NCBI GenBank assembly: GCA_026388765.1
Contig: JAPLJC010000033.1
Location: forward strand, 2,408-66,407
Direction: 5' to 3'
DNA from: Deltaproteobacteria bacterium
Lineage (GTDB): Bacteria; Desulfobacterota; Desulfobaccia; Desulfobaccales; 0-14-0-80-60-11
Length of the DNA stretch: 64,000 bases
The translations under genes and the position numbers were made by a program. The number at the start of each line of letters is the position of its first letter. Within the stretch, counting starts at the first letter, position 1. The notes under the pieces were generated by a model. It was given only the letters and a program-made list of their open reading frames with translations, ran no database searches and was not told the origin of the DNA. Positions 2,769-33,602 of the stretch are shown in pieces.

Positions 2769-3326
2769 CTAAAAATAGAGGGTGTAACTGATCTTGGCCA
2801 GGGCCAGGATCTGGCCCGGGTCGGTTTCCGGGGCATAAACCTCGGCAAATTCGCTGGTATCCACCGCAATAGAGAAGGTGTCGGCGCCCAGCCGGGTGAT
2901 GACGTGCGTTCCGTTGAGCGCCGCCCAGTCCGCCTGGGTGATGCCGCGCAGGGAGACCTGGTCGCCGTCGTGCAGGCCGTGGCCGATCCAGGTGACCACG
3001 CAGGCAGCGGCCTGGCTCAGACCCGCCAGGGCTGCCGCGGCCGCGGCGCGGATGGCCCGGAACTGGTTCAGGGCTTGTTGGCCGCAGATCCACATCTCAT
3101 CGGTGATCGCCCGGGGAATGCCGCTGGCCGCGGTGGGAGCGCCGCCATCCTCCCGGTAACGCACATCTGCGGTCTCCAGGTTGCAGCGCGCCGCCTTGGC
3201 ATTGACACCGAGGTGGCTCAACTTGGCCGCCTCGAAGCCCACGCCGCCGGCGGCGTCGCCCACCAGCAGCTCGCCGAACTCCTGGGGCGCATATTTTAAG
3301 GGGGCCAGAAAGATATTGAAGCCCAT
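2769..3326 (-). CDS. Hypothetical phage head protein
   Basis: 185-aa ORF. An SD (GAGGAG) lies upstream of the ATG at 3326. Confidence 0.55.
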   Translation of the reverse strand: MGFNIFLAPLKYAPQEFGELLVGDAAGGVGFEAAKLSHLGVNAKAARCNLETADVRYREDGGAPTAASGIPRAITDEMWICGQQALNQFRAIRAAAAAALAGLSQAAACVVTWIGHGLHDGDQVSLRGITQADWAALNGTHVITRLGADTFSIAVDTSEFAEVYAPETDPGQILALAKISYTLYF

Positions 3327-3397: not shown

Positions 3398-3823
3398 TTA
3401 TTGCAGTTCGTACTCCACTTCGCCGTGCATGGCGGCGATGTTCATGCCATTGCCCACCTTCACCTGGCGGAAGGTCAGGACGTCGCCGGCGGTCACCAGC
3501 AAATCGGCCGCGGTAGCGGAGAGCGGGATTACCTTGGGAGTGTCGGCGCCCAGATTGACCCCCGAAGTCAGGGCCAGAGTGGCGATATCCACCGTGCCGG
3601 AGCCGTCCGCCCCGAGGTTGCGCAGGGCCAGGGTGACGGAGTTGGTGTTGGCCCCGATGACCGCGGCCTCGGCCGTGGCCTTGACCCCCTTGATCCTGAG
3701 GTCCTTATGGGCCACAAAGCGGCCGTTATTGACCGTGGCCCCCAGCGGCGCCGCCACCGCCCCGGAGCCCGCCAGGCGGGTATAGGTCATGCCGGGAATG
3801 CAAGAAGCAGGATGTCTGCCCAT
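3398..3823 (-). CDS. Small head-associated protein, paralogue 1 (possible decoration/cement protein)
   Basis: 141 aa. Clearly paralogous to 3905-4342: both share the N-terminus MGRHPASC, an internal ...NNGRFVAHKDLR... stretch and the C-terminus ...GADTPKVIPLSATAADLLV.AGDVLTFRQVKVG...EYELQ. It lies directly downstream of the capsid gene. Confidence 0.7.
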   Translation of the reverse strand: MGRHPASCIPGMTYTRLAGSGAVAAPLGATVNNGRFVAHKDLRIKGVKATAEAAVIGANTNSVTLALRNLGADGSGTVDIATLALTSGVNLGADTPKVIPLSATAADLLVTAGDVLTFRQVKVGNGMNIAAMHGEVEYELQ

Positions 3824-3840
3824 CGTTGTTCTCCTTTTTT

Positions 3841-3903
3841 GACGGAGGACCGAAGACGGAAGACGGGAGAAATTGCCCCGTCCCCGGTCTCCGGTCTCCG
3901 GTC
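3841..3903 (-). repeat. Intercistronic inverted repeat built from heptamers: (GACSGRR)x4, 7-nt loop, (YCCSGTC)x4
   Basis: Read directly from the sequence. The arms are 3841-3868 and 3876-3903. Some non-complementary positions become G:U wobbles only in the minus-sense RNA; a few true mismatches remain. The element sits between the stop at 3905 and the SD/ATG at 3823. Confidence 0.75.
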
Positions 3904-3904
3904 C

Positions 3905-4342
3905 TTATTGCAGTTCGTATTCCACTTGCCCGTGCATGGCGGGGATGGCCTGGCCGTCACCCACCTTCACCTGGCGGAAGGTCAGGACATCTCCCGCGGC
4001 CACCAGCAGATCCGCCGCGGTGGCGGAAAGCGGGATCACCTTGGGGGTGTCAGCTCCCATATTGACGGCGCTGACCAGGGCCAGGCTGGCGATATCCACC
4101 GTGCCGGCGCCGGCCGCCCCCAGATTGCGCAGGGCCAGGGAGACCGTGTCGGTGTCGGCCCCGGTGACCGCGTCCAACGCCGTGACCTTGAAGCTTTTCA
4201 CCCTCAAGTCCTTATGGGCCACAAAGCGGCCGTTGTTAATGGTCGCCAGGGTGCCCTCCAAACCCACAGTAGCGGCGGGACCGATGCCCACCAGGCGGGT
4301 GAAGGTCTCGCCGGGGGTGCAAGATGCAGGATGTCTGCCCAT
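3905..4342 (-). CDS. Small head-associated protein, paralogue 2
   Basis: 145 aa, a tandem paralogue of 3398-3823. Confidence 0.7.
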   Translation of the reverse strand: MGRHPASCTPGETFTRLVGIGPAATVGLEGTLATINNGRFVAHKDLRVKSFKVTALDAVTGADTDTVSLALRNLGAAGAGTVDIASLALVSAVNMGADTPKVIPLSATAADLLVAAGDVLTFRQVKVGDGQAIPAMHGQVEYELQ

Positions 4343-4358
4343 CTTTTTCTCCTAAAAT

Positions 4359-4422
4359 GACGGGGGGCCGGAGACCGGAGACGAAGGCACCTGCCCCGGT
4401 CCCCGGTCTCCTGTCGCGGGTC
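4359..4422 (-). repeat. Second copy of the heptamer-built inverted repeat
   Basis: Arms at 4359-4386 (GACGGGG GGCCGGA GACCGGA GACGAAG) and 4395-4422 (CCCGGTC CCCGGTC TCCTGTC GCGGGTC). It lies between the capsid stop (4427) and the SD/ATG at 4342. Confidence 0.75.
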
Positions 4423-4426
4423 TTTT

Positions 4427-6787
4427 TTAGTTGCTCACCACGTGCTTGAAAAAGCCCCGGTGCTCCAGCGGCAGAATGCCGTATTCGAACCGGAGCTTGT
4501 AGGCCAGTTTGTCCGAACTGAACATGTAGCCCTGCTGGGGCTGATCCTGGATGAAGATTTCCGGCTCTTCCCGGCCCTGCAGGAAACCGACCTCGATGGT
4601 GGGGATATCCTTGGGGTCGGCCACGGCCACCCAGTCGGTGGCGTCGTTCCAGAAGTCCAGCACCAGGTAGTCCAACCCGGTGTGCAGGGTGGGCAGGTCG
4701 GTGAGTTCGCCGCTGGCCGGCACCTTCAAGCCGGACTTGGTGAGCTCGAACATCATCTCTTCCAGCTCGTTCGGCCCCAGCAGATAACGGGGCACCAGGC
4801 CCAGGACGTCGTTGCCGTCGAAAGAGGTCTGGGAGCGCATGGCCACCCGGGTGGCGGTCAGGCCCGCGGCACTCATGGCGGTTGACCCCAGGTTGCCGTG
4901 GGCGTTATCGAACAGGGGCTTGTTGCCGCCCGCTTCTGCCGGTGTATAACCCATCACCGGGTTGGCCACGAAGATGCCGAAGAAATCCTTAAACAGGGTG
5001 CGGGCCGCGGCCCGGGCCAGGTTGATGGGGATGCGACGGATGGCCCCGACCTGATCATCGATGATCATGCGCCGGGAGAGGAACTCCAATCCGCCCAGGG
5101 TGTCCACTGCATACCCGATTTCCTGATCATTGGGGCTGGCGAGTTCCAGGTAATTGTCGTGTTGCCCCACATGCGGCAGGTCGCCGTAGCCGCCCACCCG
5201 CATGCGATAGTTCTGTCGGAAATCCTGCACCGGCACGATGTCGCTGGCGATCAGCCGCCAGGACTGGTACTGCGGCAGGTTGTATTCCGCCAGCAGCCGC
5301 CGGTACATCGAATCCCCGAAGATCTGCGCCCAGGAATCCGTCCCCAGGGCCTCTTTGAACCGGGTCAGCCCTTTGGCGTCTCCCAGGCGCCCGGTGACCA
5401 GGCGGTCGCCGGTGATCATCACGTAGGCTTCCCGGAAACTCTTAAACCGGGGCACCTTCAGGTCCTTGAGCTTCTGGTCGGTCTGGAAAAAGAAGCCGTC
5501 CAGACCGGCAATCACCTTGTCCTGCTCGGCGGCGCCGGCCGCGGCCGGGGCAAAACCCTTCAATCCCGCGGCCTCATGAAAACTGGCCAGATATTCGCGC
5601 TCATCCTTGATGCCCTGGTCCAGTTTGGCCTCGGTGAAGATCTTCCGGGCGGTGAAGTCCTTGCGCAGCTTCGTCTGGGTGATCTCCGGCAGGCCGCAGG
5701 CCACCAGCTTGGTGGAGAGCAGGTTGCGGCACTCGGCCTCCTGGAAGCGGGCCTCGGATTGCTCGATCCGCTCCAGCAGATCTTTCTGCTCCTTGGCCTT
5801 GGCCCGGTCCGCCTCCGGCACTTTGGTTTTCATGGCCTCCCGGAAGAGGGTCATAACCTCTTCCTCTTTGAGGTTCGCCTGGTCCTTGCCCTGGAGCAGC
5901 TCCGGCCGCTCCGCCTCGATCATTTTGATCATGCGTTCGATAAATTCCATCTCGTCCTTTCCTCCCGTTCCGGCGCCGTCCGCCTGGATCATTCTGATGA
6001 TCTGCCCCCCGGCCGAAGCATTCAGCACCGGGTCCACCGCGTCCACCTTGGTAATGGCCTCGGCGTAACGCACCATGCGGCCGTCCTGCCGCCGCAAACT
6101 GGCCCGGCCGTCGGCCACGATGGAAAACCCCAACAAGTCGGTCTTGCCCTGATTCCAGGCCTGCCGCATCTTGACGGCGAGCCAGGGGGCGTCCCCAGCC
6201 ACGTGAAAATGACTCACCAGGCGACCACCATCAGCCTCCTGAAATTGCACCTGGTCATGCCAGCCGACGATATTTTCGACCGAGGCGCCCTTTTCCTTCA
6301 GGTGATCGTCGTCCGAGCGCTTAAAGGCCCGGACCCCCTCGAACAGGGGCGCCGCCTCCCGGAGGACTTCCGGCGGATAGAAGGTGCCGCTCTTGGCCAG
6401 GCCCGCCGAAATCAGCGATACCAGCCACTCGTAGCCCTGATCATCCCCCGCGTCGATCATCCGGCCCGGCAGGAGCACAGGCTTGCCAGCCTGTGCCCCT
6501 TCCGCCTCTCTTAATTGCGCCGGCATCTCGGCCGTCTTCCCCATTTTCTGATAAGCGGCCCGCAACTTGGCCTTGACCCCGGCCAGCGCCGCCGCCGGCA
6601 GGTCCACTTTCTGCCCGCGGAAGCCGCCCTCGGATAAGGCCGCGGCCGCGTCCGCCAGGTGCGTCTCATCCGGCGAGCCGTCGGCCTGGAGATAAAGCAG
6701 CTTCCAGGACTCCGGGTCCTGCGGGTCGCCCACAAAAGCGAAACACTTGGCCGGTAGTTCCTGGTCGCCTACTTTTTTGGTCTTCAT
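4427..6787 (-). CDS. Prohead protease / scaffold / major capsid protein fusion (786 aa)
   Basis: The N-terminal third has the layout of a prohead serine protease (...RSDDDHLKEKG...GWHD...LLGFSIVADG...). The middle is a charged coiled-coil (EMEFIERMIKMIEAERPELL...KEQKDLLERIEQSEARFQEAE). The C-terminal ~350 aa look like an HK97-type capsid protein. Confidence 0.7.
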   Translation of the reverse strand: MKTKKVGDQELPAKCFAFVGDPQDPESWKLLYLQADGSPDETHLADAAAALSEGGFRGQKVDLPAAALAGVKAKLRAAYQKMGKTAEMPAQLREAEGAQAGKPVLLPGRMIDAGDDQGYEWLVSLISAGLAKSGTFYPPEVLREAAPLFEGVRAFKRSDDDHLKEKGASVENIVGWHDQVQFQEADGGRLVSHFHVAGDAPWLAVKMRQAWNQGKTDLLGFSIVADGRASLRRQDGRMVRYAEAITKVDAVDPVLNASAGGQIIRMIQADGAGTGGKDEMEFIERMIKMIEAERPELLQGKDQANLKEEEVMTLFREAMKTKVPEADRAKAKEQKDLLERIEQSEARFQEAECRNLLSTKLVACGLPEITQTKLRKDFTARKIFTEAKLDQGIKDEREYLASFHEAAGLKGFAPAAAGAAEQDKVIAGLDGFFFQTDQKLKDLKVPRFKSFREAYVMITGDRLVTGRLGDAKGLTRFKEALGTDSWAQIFGDSMYRRLLAEYNLPQYQSWRLIASDIVPVQDFRQNYRMRVGGYGDLPHVGQHDNYLELASPNDQEIGYAVDTLGGLEFLSRRMIIDDQVGAIRRIPINLARAAARTLFKDFFGIFVANPVMGYTPAEAGGNKPLFDNAHGNLGSTAMSAAGLTATRVAMRSQTSFDGNDVLGLVPRYLLGPNELEEMMFELTKSGLKVPASGELTDLPTLHTGLDYLVLDFWNDATDWVAVADPKDIPTIEVGFLQGREEPEIFIQDQPQQGYMFSSDKLAYKLRFEYGILPLEHRGFFKHVVSN

Positions 6788-6848: not shown

Positions 6849-7598
6849 TCAGTGGCAGTTAATGGTCTCCCCCGGATCGCCGTCCGGGTCCTGGGGATAC
6901 ATCAGAGGGCCGCCGGAAAAGTCGAAAGGCTGGTCCATTTCCCGGGTCTCCCCGTTCATGGCCACGTGCTCCGGCCGGGAAGTCTTGCCGCCGCCGGGGT
7001 GCAGCCACATCTTGAGCAGCTCCGGCACCACCTCCTGGGCCTGCTTCAGCCCCAGGTAATTGGCTATTGAAAAATTGCGGCCCACCTCGGTGGTGACAAT
7101 GGCCGCGGCCCGGGCCTCAGCCGCCCGGCCGCCGCCCAGCAGGTCCCGGACGAACTGCATGGCCTGGGCCGGGGTCTCGGCCCCGGTAGTGGCCAGCAGC
7201 ACTTCCCGTTTCAGGGCCTGGCGCAGATCGTCCGACAGGTCGGTGATAAGGTGTAGGCCGTTATCGGCGTAGGCTTCGAAGCCCTGCCGCCAGATCCCGG
7301 CCCAACTGATGCCGCTGTCGAAGGCTCCGGGCAGGCTCAGACCCAACTCGAAGGCCGTCTTTTGCCAGCCCTGCAACTCGCCCCAGTAACGGTCCCGAAA
7401 ATCCTTGGTGGCCTTTTCAATGCCGGTGAGCAGTTGCCCGGCCCGGTGGCTCGCCCAGTCGCTGCGGGAAAATTCCCGCTCCACGTAGTCCCGCAAATCG
7501 GCCAACAGTTTCAGGGCCGCAGCCGCCCCGGAATGGTCCAGGTGGTCCACCTGGGCCAGGGTGTTTTTATAGAGTTTGCGGGCCTCGGCTGCGGTCAT
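6849..7598 (-). CDS. Head morphogenesis protein, Mu gpF / SPP1 gp7 family
   Basis: ...AAAIVTTEVGRNFSIANYLG... and the C-terminal ...EHVAMNGETREMDQPF... are typical of MuF-like minor head proteins. The gene lies next to the portal. Confidence 0.8.
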   Translation of the reverse strand: MTAAEARKLYKNTLAQVDHLDHSGAAAALKLLADLRDYVEREFSRSDWASHRAGQLLTGIEKATKDFRDRYWGELQGWQKTAFELGLSLPGAFDSGISWAGIWRQGFEAYADNGLHLITDLSDDLRQALKREVLLATTGAETPAQAMQFVRDLLGGGRAAEARAAAIVTTEVGRNFSIANYLGLKQAQEVVPELLKMWLHPGGGKTSRPEHVAMNGETREMDQPFDFSGGPLMYPQDPDGDPGETINCH

Positions 7599-7602
7599 AA
7601 AC

Positions 7603-7830
7603 TTAATGTCTCGGGCTCAAATCCATTACGGGCACCCAATACTCCTGATTATTCTTCAAGTAGATTCCTTCCATTAGGAAACTAACCCCTCTACGATAGT
7701 ATCGTTTCCATTGTCTATTATTAAAATTTCTTGCTGCTTCACAAAAACTACAATTATGCCTAAAACACGGACGTGGACCAATGGATAGATGATAAATAGT
7801 GTCAGGGTCTACATCGTTTATATCGACCAT
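7603..7830 (-). CDS. AT-rich moron ORF (75 aa, Cys/His-containing), unknown function
   Basis: A visibly AT-rich island in a GC-rich operon. An SD (AAAGGGGAA) precedes the ATG at 7830, and the stop is 4 nt before the MuF-like start. Contains CFRHNCSFC. Confidence 0.5.
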   Translation of the reverse strand: MVDINDVDPDTIYHLSIGPRPCFRHNCSFCEAARNFNNRQWKRYYRRGVSFLMEGIYLKNNQEYWVPVMDLSPRH

Positions 7831-7853
7831 TTAATTCCCCTTTATTCTGCCTT

Positions 7854-7888
7854 TACTGACCACTGACCACTGGCTACTGACTACTGTC
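7854..7888 (-). repeat. Tandem heptamer array, 5 x YACTGRC (minus sense GYCAGTR), copy A
   Basis: TACTGAC CACTGAC CACTGGC TACTGAC TACTGTC. It starts 1 nt from the portal stop (7890-7892) and is followed on the minus strand by AAGGC..SD..ATG (7830). Confidence 0.85.
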
Positions 7889-7889
7889 T

Positions 7890-9332
7890 CTACTTCACCG
7901 CCTTCAAGGCCCGGCGCTGGGCCGGCAGATTGTTGGTGGGGTGGGCGTCCCCGGCCGCCGCCGCAGTTTTGTCTGCGGGCAGCGCATCTTCCAGCTGATC
8001 CACCGGCTCTACTTCCGCCCCCAGCAGCGAGGCTATCTCGCAGAAGCCCCGGGCGGCCGTGTCGGCGGTCACCCAACCCTGAGTCTCGGCGATCATCAGG
8101 GCCTGGGCCGCCTGGAGCATCACCTGGCCCACCGTGGTCAGGTCCTTGGAGGAGAGCTCCGGGAAGAAGAGGTCGTATTCCCGGTTGATCCCCGCGGGCA
8201 GCACCCGCCGCATCTGCGCCTGGTCCAGGAAAAACTCGAACTGCGCCTGGAGCATGGCCTTGACCTGGCCCTGGCGGCTGCTGAGGTGCTTGATCACCGG
8301 CTCGCTCATTTCCGCCGCGGTGGAGCGGGTGGCGCCGCCGCCCTCGGCGAAGAAATGTTCGGGGAAACCCGCCCCGCCCAGAACGTAATTCTTGATCATG
8401 CGGGCGTCGTATTGGGCGTCGTGGGCCTTCAGGTCCGGGGCCACGCAGGTCCACTCGACATTTTCATTGTGGGCCCGGATACTGCCCGGCTTGGGCGCCG
8501 GGTTCTTGGCCAGAAAGTCGTCGAGTCTCTTGGGGTCGGCTCCCTTGACCAGCACGTCCCAGATCCAGGCATTGCCGAAGGCGGCCCGCTCCCCCCGGTT
8601 GAAGAGGAACTGGTTATAGAGGTCCAGGTAGTCGGCCAGGGCCACCAGGTCGCTGCGGCCCCGGGAGGCCGTGGTGACGTTGTTCACCCGGAAATAGAAG
8701 CTCTCGCCGGTGTTGAAGCCGTAGGTCTGCCCGAAGGCGTTGAGGTCCGGCGAAACCACGGTCAGGGAGCGGTTCACCGCGGTCTGGCTGATGGGCATAT
8801 CATACATCTGCCCCGCCACCTCGCCCAGTCCGTAGACCTCGATGCCGCGCACCACCCGGGCGTTATCCGGGTCCAGGTGCACCGCGGCGATGCGAGCCGG
8901 GTCGAGATAGCCCTTGCGCACAAAGCCGTCGACGGGGTTGACGTAGACCGGGTAGCACTGCTCGCCCCAGAGGCCGAATTCCAGGACCTCCTGGGGGAAG
9001 TAGAGCTCGAAGTTGTTGATCGGGTCCTTCCAGTGCCGATCCAACACGGCCTGCACCCGGTCATCCTTGGCCTCGTATTTGACCCCTTCGGCCACCACGT
9101 AATCCCGGGTCATCTGAATGATGCGCCGGGCCAGGGGGTCGGTCTCGTAGAGGTAATAGACCACCCGCAGCAGCCGGTCCTGGGCGAAGGGCAGTAGATC
9201 CCGCTGCAGGTTGCCCGACAGCCGCCGCCAGCCCTCATCGTCCGGACTACCCCCGGCCTCGCTGGGATACCAGACGGCTTCCCGGAAGGCGGTGGCGGCG
9301 GCTTTGAAGCGTTGTTTGAGTTGCAGGGCCAT
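7890..9332 (-). CDS. Portal protein
   Basis: A ~480-aa ORF between the terminase and the MuF-like gene, with portal-like sequence character. The track ORF starts at 9374. I prefer the ATG at 9332 because the hairpins at 9347-9401 would otherwise be coding. Confidence 0.8.
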   Translation of the reverse strand: MALQLKQRFKAAATAFREAVWYPSEAGGSPDDEGWRRLSGNLQRDLLPFAQDRLLRVVYYLYETDPLARRIIQMTRDYVVAEGVKYEAKDDRVQAVLDRHWKDPINNFELYFPQEVLEFGLWGEQCYPVYVNPVDGFVRKGYLDPARIAAVHLDPDNARVVRGIEVYGLGEVAGQMYDMPISQTAVNRSLTVVSPDLNAFGQTYGFNTGESFYFRVNNVTTASRGRSDLVALADYLDLYNQFLFNRGERAAFGNAWIWDVLVKGADPKRLDDFLAKNPAPKPGSIRAHNENVEWTCVAPDLKAHDAQYDARMIKNYVLGGAGFPEHFFAEGGGATRSTAAEMSEPVIKHLSSRQGQVKAMLQAQFEFFLDQAQMRRVLPAGINREYDLFFPELSSKDLTTVGQVMLQAAQALMIAETQGWVTADTAARGFCEIASLLGAEVEPVDQLEDALPADKTAAAAGDAHPTNNLPAQRRALKAVK

Positions 9333-9397: not shown

Positions 9398-9679
9398 CTA
9401 CACTTCCGTCTCTTCAGCCGTCACCGGCTCGAACCTGGTCCGAAATTCCTCATCGTCATAAAGAAAGCGGTCTTCAACCCCGAGATCTGATCCCAGGATT
9501 TCCCAAAGGCCCGAAGAAGATTGCACCGCCTCGATGATCTCCGGCCGGCGCCGGAACTTCCGGCCGCTCCAGGACGGTTTAGGCCCGGCGACCTTTTCGG
9601 GAGGATCGGGCCAGGGAGCCGGCCGTTCCATCTTGGCCATTTTGGGCCTTTCCACGCCTGGAGTTTTCTGCTTAGCCAT
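9398..9679 (-). CDS. Small hypothetical phage protein (93 aa)
   Basis: ATG at 9679 with a GAGGGAAG SD. The track's GTG start at 9703 would lie inside the heptamer array. Confidence 0.5.
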   Translation of the reverse strand: MAKQKTPGVERPKMAKMERPAPWPDPPEKVAGPKPSWSGRKFRRRPEIIEAVQSSSGLWEILGSDLGVEDRFLYDDEEFRTRFEPVTAEETEV

Positions 9680-9700
9680 GCTTCCCTCGCTTTGGCCTTT

Positions 9701-9735
9701 CACTGGCTACTGGCTACTGATTACTGGCTACTGCC
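9701..9735 (-). repeat. Tandem heptamer array, copy B
   Basis: CACTGGC TACTGGC TACTGAT TACTGGC TACTGCC. It starts 2 nt from the TerL stop (9738-9740) and is followed on the minus strand by AAAGGCC..SD..ATG (9679). Confidence 0.85.
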
Positions 9736-9737
9736 CT

Positions 9738-11300
9738 CTAATGCAGCCTCCCAAAACTCTGCCGAAAGCCGTCCGGCCGGCCGCTGCGGTAGGTGCCAAA
9801 ATCCGGGTCGGCGCCAACACTGACAGGCACAAAACAATATTTTTGCAGCAGGCTCACTGCACCCTCCAGGGCATCAGGACCATCGTCATGAACGGTTTTA
9901 TTGAGGATGTAGACCAACTGCTCCCGGAGGCGGTCCTGGTCGCTGTGGCCGCGCTCAAAGGTGATTTTGCCGTGCTCCACCAGGTAGGCCAGGGTGTTGA
10001 TGATCCGGGCCTCTTTATTGGTGCGATGATCTACCGGCACCCAACTGATATAGCGCCCCACCTTCAGAGCGTAATTGTCGATGGCCTCTTTCAAAAAATC
10101 CTTGAGCATGTTTTCTTCGATGCCCATCGGACCGCCGTAATCATCACTAATCCGATAACAGGCATCGAGCATGCCCCCGGGCGAGGCATGGCGAATATAG
10201 GCATGCAGGCAGCGGTACATCCCCGCCTTGGGGTCCCAACCCACCGCCGCGATGGCCTTGAAATCGCTGGCCTCCGCCTGAGTGGCACTGGGATCGCAGA
10301 AGGACGCCACCATCAGGTCCTTCATGACAATTTCGGCGGCGGTATGAAATTTGAACCAAGTTTCGGGGAAAGGGCTGTCTTCGGCGACGCAGAGATTGCG
10401 CATCTCCCGGTTGAAATTAACCGTGGTCATCAACTTGCGCTTGGCCCGGAGACGCTCCAGGGGCCAGTGCGCCGGCCACAGGGCCCGCTCGTCCGGGGTG
10501 CCTTCATCCAGCCAGGAGTCATAAACCCGCGAGATATACAGCGGCGCGCCGTCCTCCTCGTCCTTCATGGCGATGAGCTGCGACAAGACGCTCTTGGGGT
10601 GGAAGAGGTTGCCCACCATAATAAAGGTGTAGTCTTCCCCCATCGAGCCCATAACCGAGCCTTGCAAGAAATCTATGGCCGCCTTAATCAACCTGGGGTT
10701 AAGGACATTCTAGTCATTTTCAAAGTCATCCACATCCACTTCATCGGGCCGGTATTGCCGGTTGCGCAGCCCCCGGATTTTATCCTTGTGGCCCCGGGCC
10801 AGGACCCAGATGCCGGTGTTGGTGATGAAGCTGCCCTTACCCCAGGCCGGCCCCAGCAATTTCCCGAAGTCGTGCTTCAGCCTCGGGTTGTCCTCCAGCT
10901 CCATGCCGATGGCCAGGGTAAAGGTGGTGGCCTGCTCATTGGTGTCGCTCAGGATGATAATGAAATGCTTCAAGGCGAAACAAATCTTAAAGAGCTTGTC
11001 CCCCAGGGTGAAGAAGGTGGATTTGCCGAATTCCCGGGGCACCGCCATCAACAGGACGGCATTTTGCAGATCTGCCAGGTCAGCCCATTCCTGATGGAAT
11101 TCTCCAAACGGTTTGGTGAAATAATGCGGCAGGTAGGTGCGCATGAAGTACAACTTGTCGTGCCGGGCCCGCTCGATCCGGGCCTGTTGTTTCTCCGGCG
11201 TGTCGTTTTCGAAGGGCGAGACTGAATCCTGAATCCAGCCCCGGAGCTCGGCGGCGAACTGGTCGAAGTGGTATTCGCTGATTTTAGGCCGCTTGCGCAT
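9738..11300 (-). pseudogene. terL: Terminase large subunit interrupted by a single in-frame TAG at 10710-10712
   Basis: The N-terminal ORF 10710-11300 has Walker A (PREFGKST) and Walker B (IIILSD). The C-terminal ORF 9738-10691 is the nuclease half. Both are in the same frame, and the reverse complement of 10681-10712 reads TAG AAT GTC CTT AAC CCC AGG TTG ATT AAG. Confidence 0.85.
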
Positions 11301-15267: not shown

Positions 15268-15659
15268 TCAAAAATAGCCCAGGTCCTCAGCCACTTTCCG
15301 GGTCATGGTCTTTCTGTCCCAAGGCCGTTTTTTCGGCTTTTTTAGGGCCGGCATTCCACTTTGCGGATCCTCGGAGGCCTCCCCCTGGGGGAGATCTCGC
15401 GTCGGCCGTCCCACTTCGCCCCGATCCGGCCCGGCGGGAACCGCCGCCATTGGACGGTCAGGCGCCCCCCCCCCCCCGCACTTTTCGACTCGAAGACCTC
15501 GCAAAGGCGGCTGAGGCCATCCAGCCACTTGCCCTGCACCTCCGGGGACCAGGCCGGGTCGAAGATGGGAAACTTGGCCAGCAATTGGTTGCGCCAGTCG
15601 TTGCCGCCTGGCGGCGGGGCCTTGACCGCTGCCTGATGGATGGCAATATTATTGGCCAC
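15268..15659 (-). pseudogene. Hypothetical phage gene split across two frames at a 13-nt homopolymer (C13 on plus, G13 on the coding strand)
   Basis: The N-terminal part is in the frame of ORF 15342-15659 (MANNIAIHQAAVK...FESKSAGGGG). The plausible C-terminus is in the frame of ORF 15268-15528 (...GGGGAPDRP...KKPKKRPWDRKTMTRKVAEDLGYF). The run lies at 15465-15477. Confidence 0.5.
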
Positions 15660-15695: not shown

Positions 15696-15727
15696 GCAAA
15701 TTTTGGGAATTATATACTTAACTCCCT
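15696..15727. repeat. Left arm of the ~32-bp inverted repeat flanking the AT-rich cassette
   Basis: GCAAATTTTGGGAATTATATACTTAACTCCCT compared with the reverse complement of 15994-16026, GCAAAATTTGGGGAATTATATACTTAACTCCCT: one mismatch and one indel. Confidence 0.85.
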
Positions 15728-15982
15728 TTTTAAAAATTCATCGAGACTGTTATATCCATCTTTCCATTCAACCGCTGAAAACCATTGGAATCCTCCCCTA
15801 TACATCCCTTGGCTTTCTGCCGTCATAAAAGAGCGCAGTTTATGGCGTATATTGGGGAAATTATGTTTTGTAAGTGCCATTTTACCTTTAGGAGTATTAA
15901 ATATTTCCTTTAGGGTCAAAGATGGTATATAACCGCGCCTCTTAATGTGTTTCAAAATCTCAACTTCATTATCTGTCAGCAT
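15710..15982 (-). CDS. AT-rich ORF (90 aa) inside the inverted-repeat cassette, unknown function
   Basis: ORF track entry. It is visibly AT-rich compared with its flanks. The N-terminus MLTDNEVEILKHIKRRG is vaguely HTH-like. Confidence 0.5.
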   Translation of the reverse strand: MLTDNEVEILKHIKRRGYIPSLTLKEIFNTPKGKMALTKHNFPNIRHKLRSFMTAESQGMYRGGFQWFSAVEWKDGYNSLDEFLKRELSI

Positions 15983-15991
15983 TTTTTGCCT

Positions 15992-16828
15992 TTAGGGAGT
16001 TAAGTATATAATTCCCCAAATTTTGCACCGGCCCAGATAATGCCTGACATTCCTGCCTCCCGGCTTGGATTGCACCTGCGGCTCTTCCGGATGGCGCGGG
16101 CACCGGGGCGCTTCCCGACTCAAATTTTCCGCCACACCTTCACCCTCCTCGGAGGCCGGGCCCGGCGCCGCCATGATCTCCTTGAGCCTTTCGGGCCTCA
16201 GGATTTTCCCGGCCTCTTTTTCCGATACTTGCACGGTCGACATGTCCTTTTTCTCCGCCGGTGCGGCCGGGACCGCAGGAATATTTTCAGGAATATTTTG
16301 AGCCCTTTTTGGTAAATCCGGCCCCACTTCGGCCTCATTTTTTTGGGGCGTGTTAATTTTTGCCACCTCATTTGTGGTCGCAAAAATTAACCCGGCCGCA
16401 CTTTCACCCCCTCCCCCTTGAGGGGGGAGGGCTGGGGTGGGGGTGGCGGCCGCTTTAGGCTTGACCATCGCGGCCCGGCGCTCGGCCTGCTCCCTGGCCA
16501 TCTCCAGCGGCCGATTGACGGCGCCGGCCAGGTTCAGGGGCCGGATCTTGACCTCAACGCCCTCCGGATGCCGCGCCTTGATCTCCCGGCCCTCCGGGCA
16601 GTCCCGGCAAAAGCTCGGGAAGCCGCCGGCCGCGGCCCGCTCCTGGTTGACCAGGCATTGGCGCTCGGAGATCCGGGTGGCCCCGGGGAACCGCGTGCAG
16701 TCGAACATCTGTGGCGCGGCCAGGGCCGCCACCAGCGCGGCCAGATCGACGCCGGGGTCAACCCTCGGCCCTTGATCCATCGCCGCCGCATAATGCGACC
16801 GCGGGCCCATGTCCCGCGCCTCAGTCAT
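15992..16828 (-). CDS. Hypothetical phage protein (278 aa), Cys-containing N-domain and low-complexity centre
   Basis: ORF track entry, part of the operon. Confidence 0.55.
   Translation of the reverse strand: MTEARDMGPRSHYAAAMDQGPRVDPGVDLAALVAALAAPQMFDCTRFPGATRISERQCLVNQERAAAGGFPSFCRDCPEGREIKARHPEGVEVKIRPLNLAGAVNRPLEMAREQAERRAAMVKPKAAATPTPALPPQGGGGESAAGLIFATTNEVAKINTPQKNEAEVGPDLPKRAQNIPENIPAVPAAPAEKKDMSTVQVSEKEAGKILRPERLKEIMAAPGPASEEGEGVAENLSREAPRCPRHPEEPQVQSKPGGRNVRHYLGRCKIWGIIYLTP
15994..16026. repeat. Right arm of the inverted repeat
   Basis: See the left arm. This arm also encodes the last residues and stop of ORF 15992-16828. Confidence 0.85.
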
Positions 16829-19410: not shown

Positions 19411-19634
19411 GGCTTCCTTGATCTCTCATACTCATAGGCGCCCCTGCCAAACATGATCAGGGTGCCAAAAAGTTTTCGGGCCCTTTTGCATTCCGGGTGG
19501 TCACAAAATGAGCCGACGCACTCTTTGGCCACTCCGGCAAGGTTATCGGGCCCGAGAGGGCTTAGGGGCGGCGGCGGCCAGAGGTTAAAGTCCAACCCTG
19601 GCCTGAGCCTTTTGGGTTTCGGGTCGGGTTTCAT
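19407..19634 (-). CDS. Hypothetical protein
   Basis: 75-aa ORF with overlapping starts and stops. Confidence 0.45.
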   Translation of the reverse strand: MKPDPKPKRLRPGLDFNLWPPPPLSPLGPDNLAGVAKECVGSFCDHPECKRARKLFGTLIMFGRGAYEYERSRKP

Positions 19635-19831
19635 GGCCGGCAGACCGAAGACGGAGGACCGGAGACCGGGGCTTCCGCCTCCATGTCCTCGAAATACGGC
19701 TGAAAGACATCCTCGTCCAGCCGCAGCATCAGGCCGCCGCAGGCGGCGCAGATGGCCGTGTGGTCATCCAACCCGGCCACCCGCTGGTCCCGGCCGCCGC
19801 AATCCACGCACTGGTATTCGTAAGTCGGCAT
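19631..19831 (-). CDS. FmdB-family CxxC zinc-ribbon protein
   Basis: The N-terminus MPTYEYQCVDCG plus a second CAACG pair is the hallmark of the FmdB/Zn-ribbon regulatory family. Confidence 0.65.
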   Translation of the reverse strand: MPTYEYQCVDCGGRDQRVAGLDDHTAICAACGGLMLRLDEDVFQPYFEDMEAEAPVSGPPSSVCRP

Positions 19832-21055: not shown

Positions 21056-21346
21056 TTATTTCTCACTCCCGCCAGCCTCCGCCACCAGCCTCTCACGGAG
21101 CACCGTCGCCGCCAGGGCCGCCAGGATGACATGGTTGCTGTCGGTGATGATGACCGCCTTAGTGCGGCGCCCGGCGTTGGCGATCAAGAGGCGCCCGGAC
21201 GCAACCGCTTCGGCCCGCAGGCGCTTGGCCGGCGCCGTCTCGGGCGCCAAGATCGCCACCACCCGATTCCAGTTGAGAAAATTGCCGTAACCGATATGGA
21301 CCAGGGTGCCCCGGTTCTTGGCCCGCTGGCCGTGTTTAAAGTTCAT
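21056..21346 (-). CDS. remA: RemA / DUF370-family DNA-binding protein homologue
   Basis: LVHIGYGNFLNWNRVVAILAPETAPAKRLRAEAVASGRLLIANAGRRTKAVIITDSNHVILAALAATVLRERL aligns by eye along its whole length with B. subtilis RemA (INIGFGN...SPESAPIKR...GRRTRAV...DSDHVILSA). Confidence 0.85.
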   Translation of the reverse strand: MNFKHGQRAKNRGTLVHIGYGNFLNWNRVVAILAPETAPAKRLRAEAVASGRLLIANAGRRTKAVIITDSNHVILAALAATVLRERLVAEAGGSEK

Positions 21347-22587: not shown

Positions 22588-22784
22588 TTCTCACCCAACT
22601 CGCTCACCGCGGCAACCGGAATAATCACCACCGGGGCTGGCAGGGCCGCCCGCTTATTGATGGCGCCGAAAAATTGCACGGTGTTGTCCACCCCGGACAA
22701 ATTACCGACCCGGCCCACCAGGATGAAGGTTTCCCCCTCAAATTCCGCTTCCCCGAGATCCGACAAGAGTTCTTCCACCTGCAT
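22584..22784 (-). CDS. Hypothetical early protein
   Basis: 66-aa ORF. An SD (AAGGAGGGG) precedes the ATG at 22784. Confidence 0.5.
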   Translation of the reverse strand: MQVEELLSDLGEAEFEGETFILVGRVGNLSGVDNTVQFFGAINKRAALPAPVVIIPVAAVSELGEK

Positions 22785-22802
22785 CGACCCCTCCTTTGCC
22801 TT

Positions 22803-22836
22803 TACTGACTACTGGCTACTGACTACTGGTACTGCC
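22803..22836 (-). repeat. Tandem heptamer array, copy C
   Basis: TACTGAC TACTGGC TACTGAC TACTGGT ACTGCC. It starts 1 nt from the stop at 22838-22840 and is followed on the minus strand by AAGGCAAAGGAGGGGTCGATG. Confidence 0.85.
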
Positions 22837-22837
22837 T

Positions 22838-23434
22838 TCATTCCTCCAGCCGGCTCACCGCCAGCCGCGCCTGGGCGATGGCCCGCAGGCTCTCGCCGTT
22901 TTTCCCCGGACACTCCTGGGCCACCCGGGCAAAGGCCCCGTCCAGCGAGGCCAGGGCTTCTTGCTGCCGCCGCCGGGCCCGCAGTTGCCGCAGGCGTTCG
23001 CCGTTGCTGTCCGCCGGCGGCTTCGGCCCGAGATCCTTGATCAGGCGATAGCGGCCCGGCTGGCCCTTTCCGGCCTCGTTCCGCACCAGACCCAGGCGCA
23101 GCATGGACTTGTACCAATCCCGGACCGTATGCGGGCTGGCCCCGGATTGCAGGCTCATCTCCTCCGCCGTCAGCACCAGGTGGATGCGCTGCAGATTCCA
23201 CATGATCTCCTTGAGCTCCGGCCGCTCCTCCCGCCCCAGCCGGCGCCAGCGCCCCGGCCCCAGGTGCTCCAGCTCGCCGTATTTGGCCAGGTCCTTGAGC
23301 GCCCCGCCGAGCCGGTTGCGGCGCTCGTCGGTGCACAATTCCAGGAGGTCGCCGGCCTGGCGGCTGGTGAAGGTCTGCCCCACCGGAAAGATGGCGATCA
23401 CCTGGCGCAACCGGTCGTTGAAGGAACCTTTCAT
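22838..23434 (-). CDS. Hypothetical early protein with winged-helix-like segments
   Basis: 198-aa ORF immediately downstream of the MuB-like gene. Confidence 0.55.
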   Translation of the reverse strand: MKGSFNDRLRQVIAIFPVGQTFTSRQAGDLLELCTDERRNRLGGALKDLAKYGELEHLGPGRWRRLGREERPELKEIMWNLQRIHLVLTAEEMSLQSGASPHTVRDWYKSMLRLGLVRNEAGKGQPGRYRLIKDLGPKPPADSNGERLRQLRARRRQQEALASLDGAFARVAQECPGKNGESLRAIAQARLAVSRLEE

Positions 23435-31247: not shown

Positions 31248-33602
31248 TTAGTTGGCCAACGCCCTGCCCTTTAACCGGCTTTCGGCCATCACTACCTGGT
31301 CGCGGCCTGCCTCTTTGGCCTGATACAGCGCAGTATCCGCCGCCTGGATAACCTCCTTGCCAGAGGAACCGTGATCCGGAAAGACGGCCACCCCGGCGGA
31401 AATCGTGATGGCTTTTAGTGACGAACTCTGTAAATAGAGCCGCTTGACCCCCTCATTCAGCGCCTTGGCTCGGTCCAGGGCGACATCCATGGGAGCCCCG
31501 GGCATAATGAGCAGAAATTCCTCTCCCCCAAAGCGGCAGGCAATATCTTCCCGGCGAACCGTTTCCTGGATCATTTGGCTCAAGGCGCACAAGAGCTCAT
31601 CTCCCGCATTATGGCCATAGGTGTCGTTGTATTCCTTGAAATGGTCCAGGTCCAGCATGATTACCCCCAGGGGGCTCCCCGAGCGCTTGCCTCGGCTCAA
31701 TTCACGTTCCAGGGTCTCCTCCAGATAGCGGCGATTAAAGAGACCCGTGAGGCCATCCCGGATGGCCTGGTTGCGCAAAGTCTCACGGAGTTTCAGGTTG
31801 GCCAGGGCCATGGCCATCGCCTCAGCCACGGTGCCGGCAAACTGGCCGGTGGCTTTAATCTGATCCGCTGACTCCGGAGTGGCTCGGCGCAAATGAAAAA
31901 TACCCATAACCTCGCCCTGGGCCATCAAGGGTACACAGAGATAGCTGCCGGGGACATCGGCGCCGATATGACGGCAGTTCATGCTGGTGGCCGAATCATG
32001 AACCAGATACGCCCGGCTTCGCCTTAAGGACCAACACTCATCGTGGTCGAACACCATCTCCAGAGATGAGGTATCGCCCCAAATGGAGGTCATCTCGAAG
32101 AGATTCTTGGAGTTATTGAGGATATAGAGCGCCCCGCTATAGTCCGGGAAAAATTGGGGCACAAAGTTGGCGATGGCGCTATAGGTTTCTCCGGAGGATT
32201 GACAGGCCTGGAAGACATCGCTCATTTTCTGGAGCAGGGTCATTTGGCGGTTGCGCCGGTCTGATTCGCTCACCAGCATCTGGAGTTGTTCATTGGCCGC
32301 CTGCAATTTCTTCAGGTTTTCTTTTTGCTCAGTTAAATCTCTCGCGATCGTGACGCTACCCATATTTTTGTTGTTTTCGTCACGCAACACCTTAACGGAA
32401 AGACTGCATGGAAAAGTGCTGCCATTTTTCTTCTTCATTTCAATTTCGTAATGCTTTACACAACCATCCTGGCGCAATTGTATTAACATGTTAGCCAGTG
32501 CATCTTTATTCGCATAAAGGTCAAACGCGGGTTTCCCCTGCATCTCACCAAAACTATAGCCATAGATTTCTTCGCATGACTTGTTCCATCTGTTAACAAT
32601 TCCATGCCGGTCGACGATGCCGATAGCTTCGGTGGAGTTATCGAAGATGTTCTGCATATACTGGTTGGCCTGTTTGAGCTCCGCTTCCGCCTTCTTAAGC
32701 CAGGTGATGTCCCGGAAAGTGGCCACCACCCCAACTATCTGGCCATCTTCCTTGATCGGGCGAGTCAAATAGGCCACCGGCAGGGGATCACCCTTCTTGG
32801 TCCAGAAGACCTCGTCAATGATAAAACGTTCCTGGCCGTCTTTGAGGGTGGCTCGAAGAAGGCACTCATCTTGGGGATAAGGGGTGCCATCGGCCCTCTT
32901 GTGATGGATCAACTCATGTAAGTTTTGGCCCATAATATCCCGGGCCTGGTAGCCGAGCATTTTGAGGACGGCAGGATTGACGAAAACGACTTCGCCCGCC
33001 TGGTCCAGCTCCAACAAGCCCTCGCCCAAAGAGTTCAAGACCGTCTCGTGATGCTGCTGCATTTTCTTTATGGTTTCTTGAAATTCATGCGCCTCGGTAA
33101 TGTCGGAATAGATCCCGGTAACATATTCCACGGTGCCGTTAGCATCGCAGATTATCTGTCCTCTCTCCCGAATCCAAAGAAGCTCCCCTGATTTTATTTT
33201 TATACGATACTCCCGGACATAGGATTTATTGGTCTTTAAGGCCTGCCGGAATATCTCTTTGGCTTTTTCCAAATCCTCGGGCACAATAAGCTCGTTCCAT
33301 TTCATCCGCCGGGAGTTAAAATCCTCGATGGAATAACCGGTGGACTTCTCGAACTTCTCGTCAAATAAGTCGACACTCCAATCAGGGTAGCCCTTAAAGA
33401 CCACGGAGGGGATGGTTTTCACCAAGAGGCGGAAGTTATTCTCACTTTCCCGGAGGGACGCCACCGTTTTATTGAACCGCCGGGTAGTCCTTAGCAGGTA
33501 GAAGGATCCCAACAGGATGAAGGCGGATCCGAAAATGACGAAAATAAAATACATCTGTTGAATAAAGAGTATGCCCACCTGATTAAGGACTTTCATCGTC
33601 AT
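31248..33602 (-). CDS. Membrane-anchored PAS/PAC (x3)-GAF-GGDEF diguanylate cyclase
   Basis: N-terminal TM. Repeated PAS-like segments. The C-terminus reads GLTGLFNRRYL...DLDHFKEYNDTYGHNAGDELL...RFGGEEFLLIMPG. Confidence 0.9.
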   Translation of the reverse strand: MTMKVLNQVGILFIQQMYFIFVIFGSAFILLGSFYLLRTTRRFNKTVASLRESENNFRLLVKTIPSVVFKGYPDWSVDLFDEKFEKSTGYSIEDFNSRRMKWNELIVPEDLEKAKEIFRQALKTNKSYVREYRIKIKSGELLWIRERGQIICDANGTVEYVTGIYSDITEAHEFQETIKKMQQHHETVLNSLGEGLLELDQAGEVVFVNPAVLKMLGYQARDIMGQNLHELIHHKRADGTPYPQDECLLRATLKDGQERFIIDEVFWTKKGDPLPVAYLTRPIKEDGQIVGVVATFRDITWLKKAEAELKQANQYMQNIFDNSTEAIGIVDRHGIVNRWNKSCEEIYGYSFGEMQGKPAFDLYANKDALANMLIQLRQDGCVKHYEIEMKKKNGSTFPCSLSVKVLRDENNKNMGSVTIARDLTEQKENLKKLQAANEQLQMLVSESDRRNRQMTLLQKMSDVFQACQSSGETYSAIANFVPQFFPDYSGALYILNNSKNLFEMTSIWGDTSSLEMVFDHDECWSLRRSRAYLVHDSATSMNCRHIGADVPGSYLCVPLMAQGEVMGIFHLRRATPESADQIKATGQFAGTVAEAMAMALANLKLRETLRNQAIRDGLTGLFNRRYLEETLERELSRGKRSGSPLGVIMLDLDHFKEYNDTYGHNAGDELLCALSQMIQETVRREDIACRFGGEEFLLIMPGAPMDVALDRAKALNEGVKRLYLQSSSLKAITISAGVAVFPDHGSSGKEVIQAADTALYQAKEAGRDQVVMAESRLKGRALAN

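Follow-up and report, generated by a model that had tools for sequence, protein, structure and literature searches.

Heptamer arrays at three gene junctions of a Mu-like prophage as probable members of an intergenic repeat family of Desulfobaccales and their phages

We analyzed short tandem arrays of seven-nucleotide units in a stretch of 64,000 nucleotides from a deltaproteobacterium of the Desulfobaccales (contig JAPLJC010000033.1, positions 2,408 to 66,407), one half of which carries a Mu-like prophage and the other half host DNA. The whole stretch is called the window throughout the paper. Three such arrays, each lying between the stop codon of one prophage gene and the Shine-Dalgarno (SD) sequence of the next, were confirmed as real and far from chance. 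Judged by membership and anatomy, they are very probably one-armed members of an intergenic heptamer family spread over the whole lineage.

The arrays were found at 7854-7888, 9701-9735 and 22803-22836, the coordinates given in the initial annotation, both by a check of the sequence and independently by Tandem Repeats Finder (TRF), which reported all three with a period of 7. All features of the three junctions lie on the minus strand. Junction 1 (7828..7892) leads from the portal gene (phrog_10963, 6e-41) to a GC-poor open reading frame (ORF) of 75 aa, with the stop codon TAG at 7890-7892, the array, the linker AAAGGCAGA (7846-7854), the SD sequence AGGGG (7837-7841) and the ATG at 7828-7830; its coding strand reads TAG AGA CAGTAGT CAGTAGC CAGTGGT CAGTGGT CAGT-AAAGGCAGAATAAAGGGGAATTAA-ATG. 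At junction 2 (9677..9740), between TerL (phrog_38) and an ORF of 93 aa, the stop TAG (9738-9740) and the ATG (9677-9679) enclose the array, the linker AAAGGCCAA (9692-9700) and the SD sequence GAGGG (9684-9688), in the order TAG AGGG CAGTAGC CAGTAAT CAGTAGC CAGTAGC CAGTG-AAAGGCCAAAGCGAGGGAAGC-ATG. Junction 3 (22782..22840) joins ORF 22838-23434 to an ORF of 66 aa. Here the stop is TGA (22838-22840) and the ATG lies at 22782-22784, the linker AAAGGCAAA (22795-22803) and the SD sequence AGGAGGGG (22788-22795) follow the array, and the coding strand is TGA AGG CAGTAC CAGTAGT CAGTAGC CAGTAGT CAGT-AAAGGCAAAGGAGGGGTCG-ATG. ORF 22838-23434 (198 aa) comes after the genes for a MuA-like transposase and a MuB-like ATPase and showed a weak regulator-like match. 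The profile matches agree with the names given earlier to the upstream genes.

Each array of the window holds five CAGT cores, that is four CAGTRRY units and a fifth CAGT; the third array measures 34 nt and has one unit of only 6 nt. Counted in the phase GYCAGTR, the arrays begin 1-2 nt past the stop codon, as was claimed initially, and in the CAGT phase 3-4 nt past it (AGA, AGGG, AGG). At three of three junctions the array is succeeded by (G)AAAGGC, an SD rich in purines and an ATG, and the aligned flanks are identical, which bears out both the conserved A-AGGC and the single architecture described before. Stop codons occur in two frames of array 1 and in each of the three frames of arrays 2 and 3.

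We give almost no credence to chance, or to a generic microsatellite at three unrelated sites, for which only the general abundance of bacterial heptanucleotide repeats speaks. Using a two-unit pattern with at most one mismatch, 11 overlapping matches were obtained, all of them in the three arrays and on one strand, compared to 0.39 expected from shuffled controls; none of 100 shuffles reached 11. About 93% of the prophage is coding, so that the location of all three arrays in non-coding spacers has a chance probability of ~4e-4. Further points against chance are the identical flanks of the three sites and the same architecture in hundreds of copies elsewhere. In the host half of the window the two-unit pattern found no copy of the array, in line with the initial annotation, and tandem repeats with a period of 7 and 2.8 or more copies were absent from it.

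Outside the window, the pattern (CAGTRRY)3CAGTR was found in at least 120 IMG/VR stretches, most of them with about 60% GC, and some of these contigs have arrays on either strand, 10-25 of them within 5-10 kb (up to ~25 per 9 kb). A search of one genome per GTDB species with the strict pattern yielded 14 stretches, nearly all from metagenome-assembled genomes (MAGs) of Desulfobaccales or of organisms named ‘delta proteobacterium’, where the arrays adjoin housekeeping genes (MnmA, a MiaB-like enzyme, TrpE, SerRS, PGI, glycogen phosphorylase, FabF). The proposal of a cis-element dedicated to this phage was not upheld, as arrays with the AAAGGCAAA end occur in these viral stretches and in the Desulfobaccales MAGs; the family thus belongs to the host lineage and its phages and not to this prophage. 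Several array-bearing contigs are distant relatives of the prophage, with 36-38% identity in TerL, ~53% in the endolysin and 73-79% in the Zn-ribbon protein. For the family loci genes were called with a home-made codon-usage finder trained on the confirmed genes of the window. The counts of array ends, gene context, orientation, arm combination and arm distance given from here on were made among the matches listed. CAGTAAA terminates 179 of 491 arrays, and 122 of these 179 go on with GGCAAA as in the window; the family array end CAGTAAAGGCAAA recurs across the IMG/VR stretches. A total of 463 of 498 arrays (93%) are intergenic, compared to 18% of the sequence being non-coding. Between co-directional genes 223 arrays run sense and 185 antisense, and for those ending in CAGTAAA the numbers are 117 and 55. 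Many scattered copies, unbiased in position, within genes and on both strands, had been named beforehand as the mark of a generic microsatellite, and many copies on both strands were indeed found. The strong intergenic bias and the strict rules of position and topology nevertheless argue against this designation.

Two unusual forms of the family were seen. A MAG from the Poribacteria (CAXXCS010000004.1, locus L124), a phylum unrelated to the other hosts, carries arrays of ~500 and ~340 bp at 3800-4296 and 7288-7623, in which CAGTAGC and CAGTGGT alternate; at least the array at 7288-7623 terminates in CAGTAAAGGCAAA. In loci L047 (6461-6536 and 7774-7849), L012 and L043 the module CAGTGAT CAGTGGC CAGTGAT CAGTAAA GGCAAAGGCAAAAGAAAGTTAT is itself repeated in tandem with a 50-nt period.

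The complete element has the form stop-(CAGTRRY)n-A-rich linker-(RYYACTG)n-SD-ATG and occupies nearly every spacer of the array-rich relatives. Its linker is (CAGT)AAAGGCAAA... or the complement, its 5' arm lies at the upstream stop codon or in phase with it, and its inverted 3' arm stops just before the SD. The copies of the window consist of the 5' arm and the linker joined straight to the SD, with no 3' arm, and this compact form recurs in relative L045. Within 633 unique co-directional spacers 87 had both arms, 68 the sense arm only and 40 the antisense arm only. Where both arms were present the sense arm came first in 87 spacers and the reverse order in none; a scan of the whole IMG/VR gave 44 stretches (~88 sites) with convergent and 0 with divergent arms. 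Solo sense arms begin at a median of 4 nt (mode 1) past the stop codon, and solo antisense arms finish ahead of the start, at a median distance of 23 nt. The anchor of the arrays across the family is the upstream stop codon and not the SD. The first unit usually includes this stop: among ~98 arrays lying within 4 nt of it, the arrangement was CAG-TRR-Y in 34, TRR-N-CAGT in 25 and TAG in place of CAG in 23, and the stop-to-array distance classes -6, +1 and +4 cover 82. TAG is the stop codon of 50% of the stop-adjacent arrays versus 26% overall. Two possible causes of these stop-rich units were considered and rejected. TAG recoding does not apply, as a tRNA scan of the window found no suppressor tRNA, TAG serves as an ordinary stop and other phages use TGA, TAA and TGG units. 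A three-frame stop as general purpose fails because the CAGGGGT, CAGAAAA and GGAGACC families contain few or no stops.

Repeats of this kind have been connected with RNA hairpins. The short tandemly repeated repetitive (STRR) elements of cyanobacteria are 7-bp intergenic repeats which form hairpins between hupS and hupL, and a role in mRNA stability or translational coupling was proposed for them (PMC2670836). If the arrays analyzed here acted in the same way, they would stabilize the upstream mRNA, offer an RNase III site or modulate termination at a stop codon 1-4 nt before the stem. The prophage itself has heptamer hairpins after stop codons, at 3824-3904 and 4343-4426, and plain GC hairpins after several other stops. 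When both strands of the three junctions were folded as RNA, however, the result was no more stable than shuffled sequences (z-scores of the array folds +1.31, -0.22 and +0.48 for junctions 1 to 3), and a pattern search found no inverted partner of the arrays anywhere in the window. With neither fold nor palindrome they are direct repeats and not simple hairpins, as stated from the beginning, and a hairpin role is excluded for them. No sigma-70-like promoter and no intrinsic terminator was found at the arrays, and an Rfam scan detected no family there, its only match in the window being a cyclic di-GMP-I (c-di-GMP-I) riboswitch at 33770-33854. For the family a hairpin role is unsupported. The inverted arms of the relatives could pair, with 82.6% Watson-Crick (WC) pairs in register, yet this value is due to the CAGT/ACTG core, which does not vary. 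Among the three positions that do, WC pairs amount to 49.4% versus 51.4 +/- 1.9% for shuffled arms, i.e. there is no covariation. Arm lengths are uncorrelated (rho -0.05), and the arms lie 1 to 157 nt apart. Counting on the sense strand gave 116 G.U versus 154 A.C oppositions, which is no bias toward G.U, and the antisense strand was the better fold in 52 of the 87 paired spacers. The missing G.U bias, the antisense folding and the lack of covariation and length correlation led us to reject selection for a sense-strand RNA hairpin in the family, and we regard the hairpin explanation as a whole as highly improbable.

The comparison of orthologous junctions showed the arrays to be dispensable there and to evolve by turnover of their units. 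The relatives closest in their portal protein (72-74% identity) are without CAGTRRY arrays and carry other heptamers at the equivalent places. The TerL junction reads TAG AGG (YAGGGRT)4 AAAGGCAAAAGCGAGGGAATC ATG in L136, contains (GGGRTYA)3 plus CCAGT in L138, where CCAGTAAAGGCAAAAGCG follows the (GGGRTYA)3, and is a bare 16-nt spacer with no array in L137; its flanks are homologous across the window and these three relatives despite the differing arrays. After the portal gene L138 has (YAGGGGT)4 followed by AAAAGGCAAAAA, and L139 has (CAGAAAA)9. For junction 3 a single relative was found, L141, which shows no array there. Nearest relatives thus carry different heptamers or none. When the three arrays of the window were aligned with three orthologous ones, no columns were invariant except AG at a spacing of 7 nt (four times) and AAAGGC. 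The variant base at unit position 4 (T or G) is uniform within each array, which indicates concerted evolution by turnover of units. A survey of periods was performed on 84 kb of loci from this phage group, chosen by protein similarity and not by the pattern. Of 27 tandem repeats 15 had a period of 7, and 12 of these were intergenic; every other period was represented by at most 4. The units were diverse. A metagenome scan for copy-number variants at the TerL junction returned only the L136 contig. As a separate observation, the (YAGGGGT)n arrays at 5621-5650 of L136 and at 2135-2164 and 4099-4126 of L138 are canonical G-quadruplex motifs on the sense strand (four G3-4 tracts, 3-nt loops); the CAGTAGY arrays of the window are not.

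Some boundaries of similarity between the phages coincide with the arrays. The nucleotide similarity of L137 to the window (83.6%) breaks off exactly at the TerL stop (9738) and returns at the portal start. The window and L138 have the portal end, the array and AAAGGC in common (7917-7845), then continue with different ORFs and become similar again at MuF. L136 has no ORF at the site of the cargo ORF 7603-7830, which is the ORF with 38% GC behind array 1, set in surroundings of ~65% GC. The initial annotation had listed a module-boundary recombination site among its suggestions. It agrees with the breakpoints at arrays and the different cargo after homologous arrays, a circumstantial support. 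Taken further, the arrays would be selected recombination linkers, flush with the gene ends, by which co-infecting phages, prophages and host swap or insert single genes and leave the ORFs intact; we consider this rather unlikely. It would fit that array and linker are near-identical between phages with only 36-38% identity in TerL, as well as between phages and hosts, that the breakpoints lie at the array edges (9738 versus L137, 7845 versus L138), that array plus AAAGGC stands before different cargo in the window and in L138, and that the linker alone precedes a second GC-poor ORF of the prophage. Every gene in the array-rich relatives is bracketed by outward-reading arrays, and an array unit of ~66 nt is dispersed in one MAG and 94% identical between two. 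All mosaic phages, however, break at gene boundaries, the breakpoints are a handful, selection for evolvability is a weak force, and the heptad period and the conserved linker would be left unexplained.

The ~66-nt unit, composed of an array and AAAGGCAAATACAGAAAAAGATAAC, was found at 5292-5358 of L128 and at 3079-3145 and 1425-1490 of L132, with copies 91-94% identical. The immediate flanks of the copies, which lie in two MAGs and are repeated within one of them, do not align. This dispersal hints at mobility or gene conversion. If the arrays were non-autonomous mobile DNA, moved as a unit by a transposase with a preference for repeated sites in inverted ends or for a single-strand hairpin, similar to REPINs (paired repetitive extragenic palindromic sequences) or to miniature inverted-repeat transposable elements, the copies of the window would be decayed halves. 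Such an origin appears very unlikely to us. It would account for the fixed topology (~88:0), for the polarity lent by the conserved asymmetric linker, for either orientation relative to genes, for near-identical copies dispersed in host chromosomes and for the higher-order tandem copies of array plus linker. Against it, arm length and internal sequence vary widely, no target-site duplication is evident at the junction of the window and L137, no candidate transposase was identified, and the exact fit from stop to SD at dozens of junctions would be hard to reach by insertion alone.

A multimeric protein that reads one site per 7 nt would be another explanation. The arrays would serve as its platform, either as RNA (HutP/TRAP-like, cold-shock or S1 proteins), with control of termination-reinitiation or of the fate of the mRNA at the junction, or as DNA (ribbon-helix-helix (RHH) proteins of the Omega type). 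AG every 7 nt and AAAGGC are the sole invariant columns of the six aligned arrays. HutP reads the A and G of XAG triplets spaced 7 nt apart and separated by free spacers on unstructured RNA (PMC2425495), the arrays being predicted single-stranded, and Omega binds at least four contiguous 7-bp heptads in direct or inverted order (PMC9499535). The commonest unit of the relatives, AGTGATC, is one base off the Omega site WGTGATW, a likeness with a chance estimate of ~6% made post hoc. Arms without covariation and without correlated lengths suit oriented sites better than a selected stem, and the strictly convergent topology fits as well. For the TAACTGA repeats described below, binding of S1, Csp or CsrA was proposed by MacGregor (PMC4679880), and a cold-shock protein is encoded in two of the phage lineages.

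Such a partner was sought with Pfam in 43 of the 49 listed prophage ORFs and, among the 137 non-redundant small ORFs taken from 37 array-rich loci, in about half. No RHH/Omega, HutP, TRAP, CsrA or Hfq domain was found in these ORFs, while helix-turn-helix proteins, Gam, GemA, a Zn-ribbon protein and one cold-shock protein (in two phage lineages only) were detected; an earlier scan of array-flanking genes had given no HutP or TRAP match either. The cold-shock-domain protein is encoded by the array-rich contigs L017 (7393-7596), L039 and L095, with a weaker match in L084. RemA family proteins of Bacillus form octameric rings which wrap repetitive DNA, and the prophage encodes a RemA-like protein (21056-21346, minus strand; PF04025, 82.9 bits), an unusual cargo for a Mu-like phage. 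The sites of RemA are AT-rich 7-bp protected repeats with 3-bp spacing, read with a 10-bp period by an octameric ring (PMC8481266). The RemA-like protein was rejected as array binder, as this period contrasts with the 7-nt period without spacer and no homologue was present in 1.24 Mb of array-bearing loci. The Zn-ribbon protein 19631-19831 was rejected as well, since it is conserved in relatives with or without arrays. Besides these negative scans, several unrelated heptamer families per phage (CAGTRRY and GGAGACC here, YAGGGRT and CCGAAAA in L138), orthologous arrays that switch their unit sequence or vanish, and the absence of a terminator in or next to the arrays on which an antiterminator could act speak against the platform. 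The occurrence in both orientations to transcription (223:185) argues against a single RNA-level reader. Overall we hold a platform of this kind to be unlikely.

The explanation we favor, an STRR-like intergenic repeat which originated by slippage, was spread by recombination and serves as a passive spacer, is tentative, and we see its chance as a little below even. The arrays would arise and be homogenized by replication slippage of 7-nt units, as suggested by the concerted unit changes of orthologous arrays and the dominance of period 7. Recombination at shared sequences may spread them and exchange them among phages as well as between a phage and its host, since mosaic breakpoints are observed and arrays are far more conserved than the flanking proteins. 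In this prophage they would have no dedicated trans-acting partner. The arrays would form an unstructured intercistronic spacer, which may influence expression by backing up the stop codon with further stops and which hands over to an A-rich leader of AAAGGCAAA plus SD. Such a passive role agrees with the missing RNA structure, promoter, terminator and Rfam match at the arrays, with their stops in several frames and with their dispensability at orthologous junctions. As a by-product a recombination joint would result, at which genes could be swapped or inserted. The mechanism itself, passive spacer plus recombination, is drawn from the sequences and we regard it as somewhat more doubtful, possible rather than probable.

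We are aware that a number of observations weigh against this favored explanation. The invariant CAGT core, the asymmetric AAAGGCAAA linker, the ~88:0 topology and the anchoring at the stop codon are poorly explained by a passive origin and look like recognition or directed insertion, and AG, invariant at intervals of 7 nt, is precisely the feature recognized by readers of the HutP type. The host half of the window lacks period-7 arrays although it is copied by the same replisome, which favors selection or import on the phage side over simple slippage. Copy number varied in only 2 of 95 groups of near-identical contigs, so that slippage is not fast. Gene boundaries are natural breakpoints with or without arrays, and their coincidence with arrays is therefore weak evidence for recombination. 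Finally, the codon-usage gene finder gives approximate positions, in particular for the starts. The unexplained core, linker, topology, stop phasing and absence from the host half keep the protein reader, the recombination linker and the REPIN-like element alive as alternatives. In a bolder interpretation, which we think quite unlikely, a clade of Mu-like phages of Desulfobaccales-type hosts would have nearly every gene bracketed by outward-reading arrays as a purpose-built intergenic ‘part’. On this quite unlikely account a heptad or XAG-N4 protein or the recombination machinery would read the part, translation would be insulated from one cistron to the next and genes could be shuffled one by one among phages and host. 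The three arrays of the window would then, with the same low probability, be working one-armed versions.

Comparing the family with known repeat systems, the parallel to the cyanobacterial STRR drawn in the initial annotation is apt, as both consist of tandem 7-bp units in non-coding spacers of co-transcribed genes. The units CCCCAGT and CAACAGT of STRR1 and STRR3 also contain CAGT. STRR sequences can often form a hairpin, which the arrays of the window cannot and paired copies in relatives could. They differ further by their cyanobacterial (heterocystous) units, compared to CAG[T/G]RRY in phages and MAGs of the Desulfobaccales type with ~60% GC plus one Poribacteria MAG, and by the conserved AAAGGCAAA linker, the stop phasing and the strictly convergent topology found here. 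The TAACTGA repeats of marine Beggiatoaceae, cyanobacteria and Bacteroidetes occur in sets of 2-6 and are almost all intergenic (MacGregor, 2015; PMC4679880). They have no predicted RNA structure, stops in their forward frames limit their location, their patchy spread suggests horizontal transfer, and single-base variants are rare as repeats (PMC4679880). Common to both are an intergenic, unstructured heptamer with ACTG or CAGT, and the 3' arm RYYACTG of the family resembles TAACTGA in sequence and position. The Beggiatoaceae repeats, however, face the start codon, end ~1 nt from it and usually replace the ribosome-binding site, whereas the sense strand of the window has the complementary orientation, is anchored at the stop and continues with a strong SD. 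The units differ too (CAGTAGY/CAGTGGT in the window, reverse complement RCTACTG/ACCACTG), and the Beggiatoaceae repeats are without the AAAGGCAAA linker and without paired arms, with one inverted repeat reported. Heptanucleotides are the most abundant long simple-sequence repeats (LSSR) of prokaryotes and were put down to slippage, according to the account of Mrazek (2007) in PMC4679880. As portrayed there, this class of 5-11-nt units shares with the family the preference for period 7, the non-coding location and the excess over chance, and is defined by statistics alone, while core, linker, orientation and position are fixed here. In Geobacter metallireducens a regulatory role was predicted for multicopy elements that string together four or five heptanucleotides (GGGACCG, MTYCTGA) in tandem (PMC2700814). 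The likeness lies in the 4-5 tandem heptamers and in the CAG within TCAGRAK, the reverse complement of one class; the differences are other units, some copies within genes, and no stop anchoring or phage occurrence reported.

With regard to protein-bound heptads, Omega, the RHH ParB protein of pSM19035, binds contiguous non-palindromic 7-bp heptads with one dimer per heptad and needs at least four of them (PMC9499535). The arrays of the window have five contiguous heptads each, and the example of Omega proves that 5 x 7 bp are enough for a protein platform. In pSM19035, however, the arrays overlap promoters, serve partition and repression and have the consensus WATCACW, which the units of the window do not match; no RHH protein was found in the scanned ORFs, no promoter-like site at the arrays, and no ParA was noted. 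HutP requires two sites of three XAG triplets flanking a terminator (PMC2425495). The arrays resemble the targets of HutP and TRAP by CAG or UAG every 7 nt, an invariant AG and unstructured RNA, and differ from them in that no HutP or TRAP gene was found in the scanned ORFs, there is no terminator, and many family arrays are antisense to genes. The repetitive extragenic palindromic (REP) sequences, bacterial interspersed mosaic elements (BIMEs) and REPINs of enterobacteria and pseudomonads are high-copy intergenic palindromes linked to REP-associated tyrosine transposases (RAYTs). The family shares with them the high copy number, the intergenic location in either orientation, frequent inverted pairs, nearness to stop codons and lineage-wide occurrence, but they are unique palindromes and not tandem heptamers, and the copies of the window are non-palindromic. 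Stoperators and start-associated sequences of mycobacteriophages are likewise short and repeated in small intergenic gaps beside stop or start codons. They differ as single 13-bp sites in one orientation, bound by a repressor or including the SD, which are phage-specific and not known from host chromosomes. A description of the family was not found in the searchable literature, nor one of such arrays in Mu-like phages, as had been remarked initially. From the described repeats it differs in unit, lineage, linker, stop phasing, fixed convergent pairing and density in phage genomes.

Intergenic heptamer repeats such as STRR, TAACTGA and LSSR were described decades ago, and their function is still to be established. 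The family described here follows sharp rules with its core, linker, stop phasing, convergent topology and presence in both phage and host, and it offers natural ‘experiments’, as contigs with the element in almost every spacer can be compared to close relatives without it at the equivalent junction. Both together make the function of such repeats directly testable. Should the arrays prove to be joints for recombination or platforms for binding, transposable phages would have a new mechanism that shapes their mosaicism or polycistronic expression; if they are passive, annotation could still use them to recognize gene boundaries and links between phages and hosts in Desulfobaccales.

Finally, the genes around the arrays and further features of the prophage were inspected. 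The genes downstream of the three arrays are all small, and a search for homologues of these ORFs, made as a test for a cassette of array plus ORF, found no useful relatives. The cargo ORF 7603-7830 (minus strand) stands out with its 38% GC amid DNA of about 56-65% GC, and no homologues of it were found. ORF 15710-15982 (minus strand, 90 aa) is a second GC-poor ORF, as judged from its sequence. At 15982..15994 (minus strand) TAAAGGCAAAAAATG joins the stop of ORF 15992-16828 to its ATG without a heptamer array, so that an AAAGGCA(A/G)A linker precedes both GC-poor ORFs. Both are likely recently acquired ‘moron’ genes. A nucleotide search against GenBank phages gave no similar phage. The nearest one by portal protein (39%) is the Mu-like Microcystis phage Mae-JY22, which has no period-7 arrays; the arrays are thus not a general trait of Mu-like phages.

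A second heptamer family of the prophage forms the hairpins mentioned above, both on the minus strand. At 3824..3904, right after a stop codon, (CCGGAGA)3 and inverted (TCTTCCG)n build an intercistronic hairpin (dG -44.9 kcal/mol, z -3.94), and at 4343..4426 a hairpin of (GGRGACC)n and (GGTCTCC)n follows the protease/major-capsid gene 4427-6787 (dG -43.3 kcal/mol, z -2.78). These (GGAGACC)n hairpins flank ORF 3905-4342. This ORF and ORF 3398-3823 (minus strand) are tandem paralogues parted by the first hairpin. Both start with MGRHPASC… and they end with …GEVEYELQ or …GQVEYELQ, which looks like a recent duplication of a head/decoration-type gene. A solo run of (CCGGTCT)-type heptamers was reported by TRF at 19637..19669 (minus strand), inside the coding sequence at the 3' end of the Zn-ribbon ORF 19631-19831.

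The TerL gene (9738-11300, minus strand) contains an in-frame TAG at 10710-10712 (…DDFEND*NVLNP…), where homologues have L or Q. Possible explanations are read-through, an error of the assembly or a nonsense mutation that goes with decay of the prophage. Close upstream of ORF 15268-15450, at about 15462-15476 (minus strand), there is a run of ~13 G, which may be a homopolymer prone to slippage or an artefact of the assembly. The c-di-GMP-I riboswitch at 33770-33854 (minus strand, 82.6 bits) lies upstream of the PAS-GGDEF diguanylate cyclase gene 31248-33602 and would represent a c-di-GMP-sensing leader on a c-di-GMP-making enzyme.

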